A DNA stretch of 64,000 nucleotides from Escherichia coli. Lineage in GTDB: Bacteria; Pseudomonadota; Gammaproteobacteria; Enterobacterales; Enterobacteriaceae. The translations under genes were made by a program, and so were the position numbers. The notes under the pieces were generated by a model. The model saw only the letters and a program-made list of their open reading frames with translations, did not search any database and was not told where the DNA came from. Positions within the stretch are counted from its first letter, which is position 1. Each line of letters opens with the position of its first letter. The stretch lies in NCBI RefSeq assembly GCF_003334405.1, contig NZ_QOWM01000002.1. The stretch is one strand, 5' to 3'. Of this stretch, positions 22,873-30,038 are shown piece by piece.

Positions 22873-22900
22873 GATTCTGCAGACACTGTCTGCAGAATTC
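22873..22900. repeat. 28-bp imperfect palindrome GATTCTGCAGACACTGTCTGCAGAATTC between convergent yhcH and yhcG; possible bidirectional terminator or protein site
   Basis: Inverted repeat read directly; same family as copies at 23635-23739 and 30011-30038. Confidence 0.7.
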
Positions 22901-22913
22901 GAAACCGCTGAAA

Positions 22914-24041
22914 TTAACGGCGTCTATAGCCTTCCTCTAGCACCGCCTGTGTTCGAACGAGTTCATCTGCGAGTCGTTTCTCATCAGGTAGTTGCATCTT
23001 ATATTCGCTTGCCAGAACGGTGTTAGGCAAACCTGCCAGAGCATAATGCGCTTCTCCGGCTCCTTTCTCTGCACAGAGAACCAGACCGATGGGCGGATTT
23101 TCATCCGGTAGCGTCCAGTGCTCTTTGGCGTAGTTGAGATACATATTCATCTGTCCGGCATCGCTATAGCTGAATTTGCCCACTTTTAGATCGACGATTA
23201 GCAGGCAGCGTAAATGGCGGTGGAAAAACAGCAGATCGACACGAAACCAGTTGTCATCAATGCGTAACCTTCGCTGCCGACCAACAAAGGCAAAATCATC
23301 CCCAAGTTCCAGCATGAAATCCATCAGGTGGTTGATCAGCGCCTCCTCAAAATCGGATTCTGAATATTCATCTTTCAATTCCAGAAATTCGAGCACAAAG
23401 GGATCGCGTATCGCCTGTTGCGGAAGAATATGCGTCTCGGCAGGAGCGTGTTGTTGCAGCATGGCTGATTTGTCATGTGACAGTAGTGTCCGCTCATAAA
23501 ACTGGGTCGCAATTTGCCGCTCTAGCTGGCGAACAGACCAGCCACAGCGGAGCGTCTCTTTTTCATAAAAGCTGCGGGCGTCAGCGTTTTTAACGGAAAG
23601 TAAACGGACGTAGGTGGACCTGGGCAAGGGGAAAGATTTGGCAGACAGCGTCTGCCAAATCTTTGCCGATGGGAATTCTGCAGACGGTGTCTGCGGAATT
23701 CCCAATGGTGTTAATTCGCCAGACATTGTCTGGCGAATTTCAACATGTTGAAAAAAGAGGTAAAAAAGCCTCATTTGGCGTAAGTTTTTTGCAGAGAACC
23801 CACGCTTATACCTTAGACATAAATCCTTTGATAGTCGCTTGATTAGCTGCGCACCATACGCAGCCCTGGCCTCGCCACCTTGTTCAAATTCGACAATTCG
23901 TCGGCCAATTTCCTGGTACGTCGCGGTCATTAACGCGTTAACGCTACGTACCGTTTCCGTCCGGGCGCTATCGACCAGATGAATAATACCGTCGTGGATT
24001 TGCTGGTAGCCTGCTGTGGTTCCTTCTGAGAGCGATTCCAT
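22914..24041 (-). CDS. yhcG: DUF1016 / PDDEXK-nuclease-family protein YhcG
   Basis: 375 aa; conserved DUF1016 N- and C-terminal blocks (…CGWSVRQLERQI…); contains an in-frame palindromic repeat segment. Confidence 0.85.
   Translation of the reverse strand: MESLSEGTTAGYQQIHDGIIHLVDSARTETVRSVNALMTATYQEIGRRIVEFEQGGEARAAYGAQLIKRLSKDLCLRYKRGFSAKNLRQMRLFYLFFQHVEIRQTMSGELTPLGIPQTPSAEFPSAKIWQTLSAKSFPLPRSTYVRLLSVKNADARSFYEKETLRCGWSVRQLERQIATQFYERTLLSHDKSAMLQQHAPAETHILPQQAIRDPFVLEFLELKDEYSESDFEEALINHLMDFMLELGDDFAFVGRQRRLRIDDNWFRVDLLFFHRHLRCLLIVDLKVGKFSYSDAGQMNMYLNYAKEHWTLPDENPPIGLVLCAEKGAGEAHYALAGLPNTVLASEYKMQLPDEKRLADELVRTQAVLEEGYRRR
23635..23739. repeat. Three tandem imperfect palindromes (27-33 bp each) of the GAATTC-CAGACA family, inside the yhcG reading frame
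   Basis: P1 GATTTGGCAGACAGCGTCTGCCAAATC, P2 GGGAATTCTGCAGACGGTGTCTGCGGAATTCCC, P3 AATTCGCCAGACATTGTCTGGCGAATT. Confidence 0.8.
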
Positions 24042-24225
24042 TATCTGTCCCTTTATATGGAGCTAAGTTGAATAATGGAATGAGCTATACTCTGGGGGGT
24101 GAGCACTGAACAATTAAGAACAGCGTATTACATTTACTTTCCCCAAGATATGCGAAGAGCTTTCCTGAAACATTAACCGATCGTATAAAACGAATGCCTG
24201 ATAGTACTCCTGTCCGGCATTGTTA

Positions 24226-24942
24226 TCACAAGTAGACTACGCTTATCACAGCTTTCCCATCAAGTTCGATTTTTTCTGAACCGCCTAAATCATTCGCGAT
24301 AGATGCGCTCACCTGAAGCGGTATAATGGCGTTCGTTACAGGAGTTGGGGTTGTTTCACCTGGTTTTACAAAGGTGTAATAATAGCTTTGATCGACTGCA
24401 AGCGGATAAGCGGTGAGCGTTTGCCATGCTCTTTTTTGCCCTGTTATGACGGCATCTGCACCTGCTATTGATACAGCTAACGTCTGGCTACCATTGCTGG
24501 CACTAATGTTGTTGCTATCAATTAACACGGCATAACTACCGATATTTTTATTATCTTTTGTTTTCCCTAAGCCGAATAAGCGCGTTGTCTGGCTAATATA
24601 ACCTCCGCCATTTAAGGTATATTTTACACCACTCTGACCCCCACTATCTTTTCCGGTGGTCATACTATCCATTCGTGTATCACGAGCGGTAATCGCAATG
24701 CCGGTAGCGGATTCGCAAGTTATAGTCATATTAATATTACGTGTTCCAATCTGTGTGTAGTGCTGCGTTGAAAGTCTATTGACTGAATGACTACCGAAGT
24801 TAACAACTCCGCCGTTGCTTAGTATTGGAGTACAAGCTGCAGCTTCCAGAGTCACCTTAACGTCAATTGATACTCTATCAGCGGCTTGCGCTGACATGGC
24901 AAAAAAGGCACTTCCGGCAATCAGTAATTTTACATTGTTCAT
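24226..24942 (-). CDS. yhcF: Secreted DUF1120-type protein, paralog of GltF (likely fimbrial subunit of the cryptic chaperone-usher cluster)
   Basis: 238 aa with signal peptide; C-terminus IELDGKAVISVVYL parallels GltF IKLDGNVTISVQYL. Confidence 0.85.
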   Translation of the reverse strand: MNNVKLLIAGSAFFAMSAQAADRVSIDVKVTLEAAACTPILSNGGVVNFGSHSVNRLSTQHYTQIGTRNINMTITCESATGIAITARDTRMDSMTTGKDSGGQSGVKYTLNGGGYISQTTRLFGLGKTKDNKNIGSYAVLIDSNNISASNGSQTLAVSIAGADAVITGQKRAWQTLTAYPLAVDQSYYYTFVKPGETTPTPVTNAIIPLQVSASIANDLGGSEKIELDGKAVISVVYL

Positions 24943-27881: not shown

Positions 27882-28556
27882 TTATTTTAAGTCAGTGACA
27901 TATTTATTACCGCGATAACCATATCGGCTGGCTGGGTAAAACTCGACTTTTGTATCCGTAGCGTTTGTTAATGCAGTAGTTGTACTGGTGTGTGGTAGAA
28001 AATAGGTCTTATTTATAGCCCCCGTTTTTCCTGAAGGGAGCGTTTTAAATTGTAAGGTCATACGAACGACATAATTACTGGGGTTGCTAATCTCAATTTG
28101 GTCGCCATTTTTACGCCATTCCAGGAATTTCCAGGTCTCTCGCTCTTCCGGCAGGGAAGCCGGGTGGATCAGTACAGGTAGATCCTGACGAATTGAAACA
28201 GTAACTCTGCTGCTCTTGTCATCTTTTGGTGGAATACCTTCGAACGTTACGCGTTTCAGCTCTTCTGATTGCAGAGGAACAGTCGCCTGAAGTAAAAATC
28301 GAACCTGTTGTACTTGACCGGCTTCAACACGAATAACGGGCTGAGTCGGGATTAAACGAATTGATTTATTGCTTTCAGGCAAATCAACAATGGTGGTGTA
28401 AAGCAATGAAGGATGATCATCTGTATTCTTAATATTAATACTAGCTTCACCACGCTTTTCATCAACCAGCAATACTGATGTTTCAGGAACCATCCCTGTG
28501 GCTAAGGTATTCATTGATGTTGTTATAAATACAGTGAATGTAATGTGTCTGAGCAT
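27882..28556 (-). CDS. yhcA: Periplasmic fimbrial chaperone (PapD-like)
   Basis: 224 aa with signal peptide; PapD-like chaperone fold inferred from sequence. Confidence 0.88.
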   Translation of the reverse strand: MLRHITFTVFITTSMNTLATGMVPETSVLLVDEKRGEASINIKNTDDHPSLLYTTIVDLPESNKSIRLIPTQPVIRVEAGQVQQVRFLLQATVPLQSEELKRVTFEGIPPKDDKSSRVTVSIRQDLPVLIHPASLPEERETWKFLEWRKNGDQIEISNPSNYVVRMTLQFKTLPSGKTGAINKTYFLPHTSTTTALTNATDTKVEFYPASRYGYRGNKYVTDLK

Positions 28557-28727
28557 TTAAATTAAAACTCCTGTAATAATGATAAATAACGCAGAAACAT
28601 ATTGTTAATATATGTTATGCACTGTTTGCGATGAGATTGATTAAGACAGACCATGTCATAGGGCATAATCTGTCCGAGTTATAGCTAACTGGTTAATGCG
28701 TAAAAATAAAAACTGTATTACAAGTTC

Positions 28728-29492
28728 TTATAAATACTGAACGCTGATAGTGACGTTACCATCCAGTTTGATCGTTTCATCAGAACCAAGAATAGTATTG
28801 TCATTTACCGCAGCATCAATCAGTAACGGGAAGGTGACCGCTGTAATGGCAACAGGTGTCAGTTCCCCTGTTTTTGCAACAGAATAACCGCGCTCGATTG
28901 CTGAGCAACTTGTCAGCGAGCAGAATGCGCCATTAGATGAGGCTTTCCATGTGGGGGTCGCTGCTGACCAGTGGTCAGTTTGAATCAGGTCGACAGGAAT
29001 TTCACCTGTATCGTCCGCCGCGTGAATCCCACCATTAGACCTGTCAATACCAATGGATGCAGCGCCAATTTTTTGTCCATTAGGCGCAGAACCTAAACCA
29101 AAGGCGTTTTTCGTTCCCTTCATATCTACGAGAGTATCATAAGCTTTTTCAATATAGGATGTGTCGTTTAACGCTACAATGGTCGACTGACGGTTATCCT
29201 TGGAGGTTACAGCAATTAGCGTTGGTGCTGTGCAGGTTATATTTAATGTGCTGTTTTTGCGGCCCAGTTGAACCAGTTTATTACTTTTACCGGTCGGATT
29301 CAGCGCACTGTTATGATGTTTCCCATAGTCAACAATGCCGCCGCCCGTAACAACTGGGGTACATGCACCAGGGGTATACTCGCCGATGATAGTTAATTCT
29401 GTATCAGTTGAATCTGTTGCCATGGCACTGAATGCTGCAACAGAAAGTGCTGCACAAATAGCAGCTGTTGTGAGGTTCTTTTTGAAAAACAT
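28728..29492 (-). CDS. gltF: Periplasmic DUF1120 protein GltF (probable fimbrial subunit)
   Basis: 254 aa with signal peptide MFFKKNLTTAAICAALSVAAFSAMA; paralogous to YhcF. Confidence 0.88.
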   Translation of the reverse strand: MFFKKNLTTAAICAALSVAAFSAMATDSTDTELTIIGEYTPGACTPVVTGGGIVDYGKHHNSALNPTGKSNKLVQLGRKNSTLNITCTAPTLIAVTSKDNRQSTIVALNDTSYIEKAYDTLVDMKGTKNAFGLGSAPNGQKIGAASIGIDRSNGGIHAADDTGEIPVDLIQTDHWSAATPTWKASSNGAFCSLTSCSAIERGYSVAKTGELTPVAITAVTFPLLIDAAVNDNTILGSDETIKLDGNVTISVQYL

Positions 29493-30010
29493 ATGAACAT
29501 ATCCTTAATAACAAATTTATTTTTTAAAATAAAAAGCTGAAGCAGTATATATATCTGTTTGTGAATGTAAATAAATAACTCGTTCAGAAATAGCCAACTT
29601 GCTGGGATGTATTTATTTAATGAATTTTATAGTTACGATCATGTGAATAATAAGGTGCTGGTGAGGTGGTTTGTGGTGATAATTATTCATTACATGAATG
29701 TTTGCGCTGAAAAATAGGAAAATATATAGATAATTAAGGATAATATATTGGTTTTTTATATTCATATTTTGTATATTAATATCGAGACAATTTACATGGA
29801 ATGAAAAGACTGAATAGCTTGCAGAATCGGTATTGTCAGAGGTGTTAACAAGTAATTGAGACGGATTGTAAATGAGAAATTGCTTGATGTGCTTCACTCA
29901 TCAGACTTGGTGAACAAAGCACAATTTATTGAAAATTATCCCTATTATAGGAAAGGTCAAACGCTCATGCCGCATTTGCCAGAAAACAACGCGCACTTCG
30001 TCAGTAATTT

Positions 30011-30038
30011 GATTCGCCAGACACAGTCTGGCGAATTC
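30011..30038. repeat. 28-bp imperfect palindrome GATTCGCCAGACACAGTCTGGCGAATTC just downstream of gltD
   Basis: Inverted repeat, near-identical arms to P3 inside yhcG. Confidence 0.7.

Follow-up and report, generated by a model that had tools for sequence, protein, structure and literature searches.

A covarying DNA palindrome at a fixed coding position of yhcG/DUF1016 genes and its copies at recombination endpoints beside Escherichia coli yhcG

Several described systems come close to the element reported here, a family of short palindromes lying inside and around the nuclease gene yhcG in a stretch of 64,000 nucleotides of Escherichia coli (NCBI RefSeq assembly GCF_003334405.1, contig NZ_QOWM01000002.1), which as a whole we call the window. 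Repetitive extragenic palindromes and bacterial interspersed mosaic elements (REP/BIME), with their REP-associated tyrosine transposases (RAYT), are likewise short covarying palindromes linked to a nuclease-type gene and able to flank it, and they too lie between genes and at gene 3' ends; they occur, however, in hundreds of dispersed copies and are linked to an HUH enzyme (RAYT), whereas here there are one to four places per E. coli genome, a PD-(D/E)XK nuclease, unrelated sequences and a principal copy within coding sequence at a fixed codon position. The integron attC site is also palindromic, bounds a single-gene cassette, is recognised as a folded structure and, through two-site recombination, loses the intervening DNA and leaves one site, but it is imperfect, 55-140 bp long, has RYYYAAC/GTTRRRY cores and extrahelical bases and needs IntI, while the element described here is perfect, 27-33 bp long and intragenic in one of its copies, with no integrase seen. 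Bacterial selenocysteine insertion sequences (SECIS) and other hairpins embedded in open reading frames (ORFs) resemble it in that a stem-loop within coding sequence constrains codon or amino-acid choice across a protein family; those are RNA structures with loops and G.U pairs that serve recoding, in contrast to the DNA-like symmetry found here (odd centre, Watson-Crick pairs only), which comes with no recoding signal and has copies outside genes. Rickettsia palindromic elements (RPE) and palindromic amphipathic repeat coding elements (PARCEL) likewise consist of palindromic DNA read in frame as protein and able to grow into tandem coding repeats (PMC2996958), as happens here with the three units of K-12 yhcG and an array of 37 78-bp units in one homologous locus (L095 in our survey), although RPE and PARCEL measure 75-150 nt and occupy many unrelated genes (PMC2996958) rather than one position of one gene family. 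The repeats upstream of the endoribonuclease toxin in type III toxin-antitoxin (ToxI-like) systems find a parallel arrangement in L095 only, and there beside a PD-(D/E)XK family. Quasipalindromes that act as template-switch hotspots, reportedly the subject of work by Ripley and by the Lovett laboratory, produce, by copying one arm onto the other, compensatory changes in both arms at once and a flipped centre base, as is seen among the E. coli alleles of pal1; they are mutational hotspots rather than conserved elements, and give no account of why a palindrome should stay at one site throughout the domains of life. None of these systems has the anatomy that defines the present element: a short, perfect dyad that occupies one codon position of a single nuclease family, in Archaea as well as in Bacteria, and has matching copies at the ends of genes.

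The window carries nanE-nanK-nanQ (yhcH) on the plus strand, followed on the minus strand by yhcG, yhcF-yhcA, gltF, gltD and gltB. An earlier note on this DNA had pointed to five related palindromes around yhcG, and direct reading of the sequence confirmed all five. The features on which the analysis rests are the following.

22914-24041, minus strand: yhcG, 375 amino acids, with a DUF1016_N domain and a YhcG_C PD-(D/E)XK nuclease domain.
22873-22900, unstranded: pal1, intergenic palindrome GATTCTGCAGACA-C-TGTCTGCAGAATTC, between the convergent nanQ/yhcH stop (22854) and yhcG stop (22914).
23629-23745, minus strand: three in-frame tandem 39-bp units of yhcG (codons ~100-138), with one palindrome per unit.
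23632-23664, unstranded: internal palindrome A, AAAGATTTGGCAGAC-AGC-GTCTGCCAAATCTTT.
23671-23703, unstranded: internal palindrome B, GGGAATTCTGCAGAC-GGT-GTCTGCGGAATTCCC, with one T.G / C.A position.
23713-23739, unstranded: internal palindrome C, AATTCGCCAGACA-T-TGTCTGGCGAATT, in the unit that is retained in every yhcG allele seen.
30011-30038, unstranded: pal5, intergenic palindrome GATTCGCCAGAC-ACA-GTCTGGCGAATTC, 13 nt past the gltD stop (30052).
22901-30010, unstranded: the 7.1-kb segment between pal1 and pal5 (yhcG, yhcF-A, gltF), missing in 947 of 5426 E. coli genomes, with a single palindrome in its place.

All five sequences represent a single element, a perfect DNA palindrome of 27-33 bp that is the hallmark of yhcG/DUF1016 (PDC-S02) genes. 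The degenerate pattern TTYNSCAGACNNNGTCTGSNRAA matches the window at 22875, 23637, 23676, 23715 and 30013, and at these five sites only even when two mismatches are permitted, which bears out the claim that the family occurs nowhere else in the 64 kb; the chance expectation is 0.02 matches and none of 100 shuffled sequences reached five. Every copy is self-complementary while its inner bases differ from those of other copies (TGG/CCA, CTG/CAG, CGC/GCG), and the arm matches that the note had proposed are real, since pal1 and internal B have GAATTCTGCAGAC in common and pal5 and internal C have AATTCGCCAGAC. Folded as single-stranded DNA, all copies on both strands gave -11 to -17.6 kcal/mol (z between -5 and -9 against shuffles), and as RNA the hairpins reached -16 to -23 kcal/mol each, with z = -11 for the internal triple. 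The internal copies are spaced by exactly 39 bp, or 13 codons, and encode the peptides EIRQTMSGELTPL / GIPQTPSAEFPSA / KIWQTLSAKSFPL; Tandem Repeats Finder made no call on the three units, which outside the dyad have diverged too far for it, so that the periodicity rests on the pattern matches. Both intergenic copies lie, as the note had it, at the 3' ends of convergent or terminal genes, pal1 past the nanQ/yhcH stop and beginning 14 nt past that of yhcG, and pal5 past that of gltD.

Searching one genome per prokaryotic species with the same pattern yielded at least 120 loci in Acidobacteria, Bacteroidota, Firmicutes, Proteobacteria, Planctomycetota, Chloroflexi, Woesearchaeota, Methanomicrobiales and other groups. 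About 90 of the 120 matches listed fall within a homologue of YhcG (tblastn with the E. coli protein), and among them the palindrome always lies in the same place, ~95-110 codons into the gene; their coding-strand consensus is rATTnnS-CAGACA-S-TGTCTG-SnnAATy, and the positions left free by the pattern are nearly always complementary between the arms. A second sample, chosen independently of the palindrome, consisted of 80 prophage or viral contigs picked by peptide patterns of the C-terminal nuclease domain. Of 76 distinct genes, 62 had the strongest palindrome found anywhere in the gene at the homologous place, with its centre usually exactly 12 nt ahead of the LSWSHY codons, and it comprised 10-15 pairs compared with 5-8 for the second-best palindrome of the gene. 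The peptides encoded at the site vary widely (ICQTLSGKL, IASAVRTQL, IVNACVHNL, IVDTACRQS, ICYTLCSKL, FVTPLVTQI, IRQQAVDQL, KGETLSHLL), and in the viral contigs L150 and L152 the dyad GAATTCGCCAGACAGTGTCTGACGAAT, ~13 nt ahead of the SWSN codons, is read in another frame (EFARQCLTNL), unlike the usual I-x-Q-T-x-S. Over 156 distinct sites the dyad is odd-centred in 147, with C as the centre base in 71 and G in 60, and the innermost pair is retained in 68%. The dyad is present at a fixed coding point in nearly every yhcG/DUF1016 member examined in Bacteria, Archaea and prophages. The link that the earlier note had drawn between the element and this locus consequently holds within E. coli and does not hold beyond it, where the palindrome is a near-universal covarying feature inside yhcG/DUF1016 coding sequence.

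What is conserved at this point is the nucleic-acid dyad and not the peptide, because the arms covary even where the peptide or the reading frame differs. Against a conservative null that shuffled synonymous codons and kept the protein, the mean observed was 11.06 of 13 pairs as compared with 8.04, and p was at most 0.01 in 42 of 66 genes. Palindromes of at least 10 pairs occurred in 70% of yhcG genes but in 2.6% of the other long ORFs of the same contigs; ~92% of the prophage sample have ten or more of the 13 pairs intact at the homologous position, in proteins that are only 30-60% identical, and the QTxS motif where it occurs elsewhere in the same YhcG-family proteins is not palindromic. Counting pairs in 31 distinct ungapped sequences anchored on the protein motif, we found 90.3% of cells paired, against 61% in shuffled data (0 of 500 as high) and 29-37% in slid controls, and 115 cells changed on both sides where 39 were expected (0 of 500). 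Compensatory change was seen in 11 of the 13 pairs, and the inner nine pairs are virtually devoid of one-sided (G.U) states, which is the expectation if both strands must pair. Mismatches on the sense strand comprised 21 G.T and 50 A.C; we discarded this asymmetry as a test of RNA versus DNA, for codon constraints account for the A.C excess (CAA for Gln yields A.C, while G.T would require Ser to become Phe).

The protein that harbours the dyad gives clear matches to Pfam PF17761 and PF06250 (E-values 1.3e-36 and 1.8e-56) and to the PADLOC candidate defence gene PDC-S02 (3.4e-131), and the family-invariant residues (E228, E232, E245, D269 and K286) are present in the E. coli sequence. To our knowledge, DUF1016/YhcG is among the commonest uncharacterised nuclease families of restriction-modification and defence islands, prophages and conjugative elements, and we know of no mechanism for it. 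In an alignment of 30 sequences, a linker of variable length separates the conserved MRxFYLxYP and LSWSHY blocks and holds from one to five 'IxQTxS[AG][KE]' units; a single 39-bp unit is the norm for the family, and O157 strains have one where K-12-type yhcG has three in frame. The nuclease domain has been related to DUF91/NucS, to YraN-like resolvases and to archaeal Holliday-junction resolvases (PMC1189080). Full-text searches of the literature on DUF1016, YhcG, COG4804 and PDC-S02 gave nuclease-fold predictions and defence-island context and nothing that describes the palindromes; the observation is real and new. In the region upstream of yhcG, at about 24042-24230 of the window, a stationary-phase non-coding RNA, G0-10703, is reported to be transcribed divergently and to overlap the yhcG 5' untranslated region (UTR) by 128 bp (PMC7967276), apparently without connection to the palindromes.

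A minority of loci have extra copies that sit tightly at ORF ends and carry the same variable bases as the internal copy of the gene. Such copies lie ~13-36 nt from a start or stop codon in the surveyed loci L021, L037, L046 and L159 and in E. coli, where the copy in question is pal1, after the yhcG stop. In L037 three copies share AATTTTGC arms, one 30 nt before the start, one inside the gene and one 16 nt past the stop; an upstream and an internal copy are present in L021, L046 has identical copies on either side of the gene, and the upstream copy of L159 shares with the internal one a non-consensus core, CCAGTCA/TGACTGG. Copies without a nearby yhcG occupy intergenic positions in restriction and defence loci, where they follow hsdR or adjoin a large methyltransferase or a Fic gene. 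L094 has two perfect dyads 390 bp apart, at 9399 and 9789, next to a Fic gene and with no yhcG in the vicinity; elsewhere two abutting dyads stand 20 nt after an ORF (L014:4090-4135), and a dyad with ~21-nt perfect arms lies just past a C-terminal fragment of yhcG (L007:5724-5766). The most expanded form occurs in L095, a metagenome-assembled genome of Rhodothermales, in which positions 2472-5348 hold 36.9 tandem copies of a 78-bp unit, 76% matched along its length and made of two 39-bp half-units with a yhcG-type dyad in each. This array is open as a 1012-codon ORF of ILQTVSVES... / ILQTVSVESGSGVNS... repeats and lies directly upstream of a yhcG homologue on the same strand (L095:1198-2361, minus strand). 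It was rejected as an array of clustered regularly interspaced short palindromic repeats (CRISPR), being matched throughout and an open ORF without unique spacers.

Comparison of 5426 complete E. coli genomes showed that DNA rearrangements begin and end at the palindromes. Queried with pal5, these genomes gave matches at one to four places each (median 2), all at this type of locus, and the element is thus no abundant dispersed repeat. Three main configurations were found. That of the window and of K-12, nanQ-[pal1]-yhcG-yhcFEDA-gltF-[pal5]-gltD, is present in 1236 genomes. In the second, seen in O157 and in strain 13P477T, the order is nanQ-[pal1]-yhcG-183 nt-gltD, with neither pal5 nor the accessory island gltF-yhcA-yhcD-yhcE-yhcF (~24176-30038 in the window), whose gltD-proximal end is pal5. 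The third, nanQ-[single palindrome]-gltD, lacks yhcG and was found in 947 genomes; its junction runs from the flank on the left of pal1 through the palindrome AATTCGCCAGACACTGTCTGGCGAATT into the pal5-specific right flank cattgttacctcgcTTA, so that pal1 marks the left and pal5 the right end of the deleted segment. The proposal that the intergenic copies bracket yhcG and the fimbrial cluster is thereby borne out, for exactly the bracketed DNA is missing in these genomes and one palindrome is left. Because the outgroup E. albertii, which also lacks the island, has the spacer of the second configuration (gltD and yhcG 183 nt apart), that configuration is probably ancestral; the first probably arose from it by insertion of the island, and the third from the first by loss of everything between pal1 and pal5.

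Other rearrangements end at the same element. The 3' 250 codons of yhcG are gone in E. albertii, and the junction is a hybrid palindrome, ATTGGCAGACA-C-TGTCTGCAGAAT, whose left arm comes from an internal unit (A-like) and whose right arm and flank come from pal1. O157 alleles of yhcG show an exact loss of 78 bp, equal to two units. In 718 of the 5426 genomes ~470 bp replace pal1 and the 3' two-thirds of yhcG, with the junction at the outer (left) edge of palindrome A; the replacing segment in strain H2 carries a 101-residue ORF annotated 'transposase' (L204:305-610; WP_000639208.1), in which NCBIfam recognised no family, and on its nanQ side it has a hairpin GGCACAGAGC...GCTCTGTGCC. Strains of E. 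coli also vary in pal1 itself (TTCTGCAGACA[C/G]TGTCTGCAGAA versus TTCTCCAGACAGTGTCTGGAGAA) by compensatory changes and centre flips. We compared N-terminal with C-terminal identity for signs of module swapping and found suggestive pairs, of which two had tract ends that could be localised: in the near-identical prophage alleles L129/L131 and L132/L135 the mosaic tracts end at the dyad, the pair L147/L160 being too divergent for locating the ends. Divergence between close relatives is highest just 5' of the dyad. Many fragment models of PADLOC PDC-S02 end at about residue 100-113, that is, at the dyad, as do E. coli products annotated 'DUF1016 N-terminal domain-containing protein' and annotated pseudogenes, and truncation at this point seems to be common across taxa. 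The yhcG pseudogene allele of E. coli strain A30 (L205:441-1112) has an internal deletion with endpoints away from the palindromes; therefore not all decay of yhcG is linked to the dyad. Taken together, the dyad is recombinogenic in natural populations.

The stems of pal1 and pal5, 11-12 bp long, have the G+C-rich stem-loop of an intrinsic terminator, and the earlier note had suggested terminator-like hairpins; no T/U tract follows the stem of either intergenic copy (tails TCGAAACC / CTTTAAAA and CATTGTTA / CAAATTAC), a promoter and terminator scan called neither in either orientation, and we exclude them as intrinsic terminators because they lack the T tail. In the window pal1 and pal5 are recombination endpoints of a deletable segment containing yhcG, not terminators. 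The note could name no repeat family, and the covariance models of Rfam gave no match at E<=1 over 20000-33000. REP/BIME identity is excluded by the one to four places per genome and the absence of other copies in the window, and comparison by eye with what we take to be the REP consensus showed no likeness. Integron attC is excluded as well, the elements being perfect 27-33-bp dyads with AATT ends and not imperfect 55-140-bp sites with R''/L''-L'/R' cores; no intI integrase was evident among the annotated neighbours, for which no dedicated search was made.

How the dyad came to be kept at this point admits several explanations, which the evidence above separates to different degrees. It is very improbable that pal1 and pal5 are plain terminators or 3' stabilisers for nanQ, yhcG and gltD that resemble the yhcG-internal motif by coincidence: their stability and their position just past the stops of convergent or terminal genes would fit, but apart from the missing T/U tract, strains without pal5 close gltD with a different hairpin, and the same element lies within coding sequence in hundreds of unrelated genomes. 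We regard it as very unlikely, too, that yhcG is the cargo of a small mobile cassette for which the palindromes serve as ends or attachment sites and which a different recombinase or transposase moves. The palindrome-flanked yhcG genes of L046 and L037, the lone palindromes in restriction and defence loci and the 'transposase'-annotated ORF that adjoins palindrome A in 718 genomes could be read in this way; however, no recombinase accompanies the element consistently, comparison with the outgroup points to deletion as the origin of the 'empty site' of E. coli and not to insertion as that of the occupied one, and an internal copy at a fixed codon position would be left unexplained. A role in RNA, as a hairpin of the yhcG transcript (in the 5' UTR, internally or in the 3' UTR) controlling its stability, processing or translation, or as a cis-encoded RNA partner in the manner of a type III antitoxin, is doubtful but still a serious rival. 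All linked extra copies could be co-transcribed with yhcG, being placed ~25-30 nt ahead of the start, ~15-30 nt past the stop or, in L095, in the array directly upstream on the same strand, and the RNA hairpins are very stable; against this, the stem shows no G.U tolerance, one-sided changes are almost absent and G.T mismatches are fewer than A.C (in part an effect of codon constraints), the symmetry continues through what would be the loop, pal5 lies 6 kb away from yhcG, Rfam offers no match, and recombination endpoints are a property of DNA.

Somewhat less unlikely, and a possibility to be taken seriously, is a neutral, self-perpetuating quasi-palindrome, in which a chance ancestral palindrome in a permissive linker has been maintained by template switching that copies arm onto arm, the intergenic copies being debris of rearrangement. 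The location in a linker of variable length between conserved blocks, the nearly always two-sided changes without intermediates, the C/G flips of the centre base and the double transversion of pal1 in E. coli, both typical of template switching, the extension of the symmetry to the innermost pair in 68% of sites, and the survival of a single palindrome in the 947 genomes that have no yhcG at this locus are consistent with it. Nevertheless, drift would be expected to erase the palindrome in many lineages once two mismatches have arisen. In an unbiased sample ~92% retain ten or more of the 13 pairs across Bacteria and Archaea, and other ORFs almost never have such palindromes; the matched extra copies held tightly at ORF ends in unrelated taxa and the conserved outer AATT, inner CAGACA and C/G centre are likewise left unexplained. 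Of the remaining suggestions of the earlier note, a site for a dimeric DNA-binding protein and a remnant of a small mobile element are both possible.

We favour, at a probability of roughly 0.4, a role at the DNA level, with the dyad acting as a hairpin- or cruciform-forming, recombinogenic element and as a cis site, regulatory and/or for cleavage, of a structure-specific nuclease. A DNA-level role is preferred because the symmetry is odd-centred and runs through the centre, because G.U intermediates are absent, because both strands fold equally well and because every consequence documented is a rearrangement of DNA. Extruded as a cruciform, a perfect dyad can form a four-way junction, and given the placement of the YhcG domain near Holliday-junction resolvases the partner would most likely be YhcG itself, with a host structure-specific nuclease as the alternative; such an interaction would serve autoregulation, cleavage or both. 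Breakage at the site followed by template switching within the palindrome would homogenise the arms, change the number of units and produce deletions and conversion tracts that end there.

A number of points weigh against this explanation. For a cruciform to extrude in vivo, arms of 12-16 bp are short, and the three E. coli units with their different inner bases speak against simple sequence-specific recognition by one dimer. No dedicated enzyme need be involved in the E. coli deletions, which ordinary slippage between 25-nt repeats, or their recombination over short homology, could have produced, and homogenisation of the arms can be purely mutational, through template switching. Flanking copies are present in only about 8-10 of the 133 genes surveyed. 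The 31 in-register sequences of the pair count were picked by eye from 60, the others having the dyad at another offset because of extra units. Searching the PDB sequences with a profile of the YhcG family returned spurious uL24m matches only, and hhalign of that profile against Hjc of Sulfolobus (Sso) gave no signal (probability 0.13); the resolvase-like placement itself comes from low-scoring fold recognition published in 2005 (PMC1189080).

Carrying the DNA-level role further, yhcG/DUF1016 genes might be autonomous cassettes bounded by palindromes, whose resolvase-like PD-(D/E)XK enzyme would recognise the cruciform or hairpin of its own in-frame dyad and of the matching copies at the cassette ends, and through that site throttle its own expression and cut and rejoin DNA. 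We consider this speculative and rather unlikely. If true, it would drive the loss and gain of cassettes and the exchange of modules in defence islands, and it would define a new class of structure-specific, self-referential element with an 'att' site inside its coding sequence.

Should the palindrome prove neutral, it would still show with unusual clarity, in nature, how arm-to-arm copying can keep a palindrome within a protein-coding gene over deep time. For E. coli, the results explain a real polymorphism of the chromosome, namely the presence or absence of yhcG, the yhcADEF fimbrial cluster and gltF between nanQ and gltD, with breakpoints at the palindromes. For the DUF1016/YhcG family, a dyad that takes precedence over the peptide sequence at one set place in the gene is the first concrete handle, and it represents a candidate substrate or operator of these nucleases.

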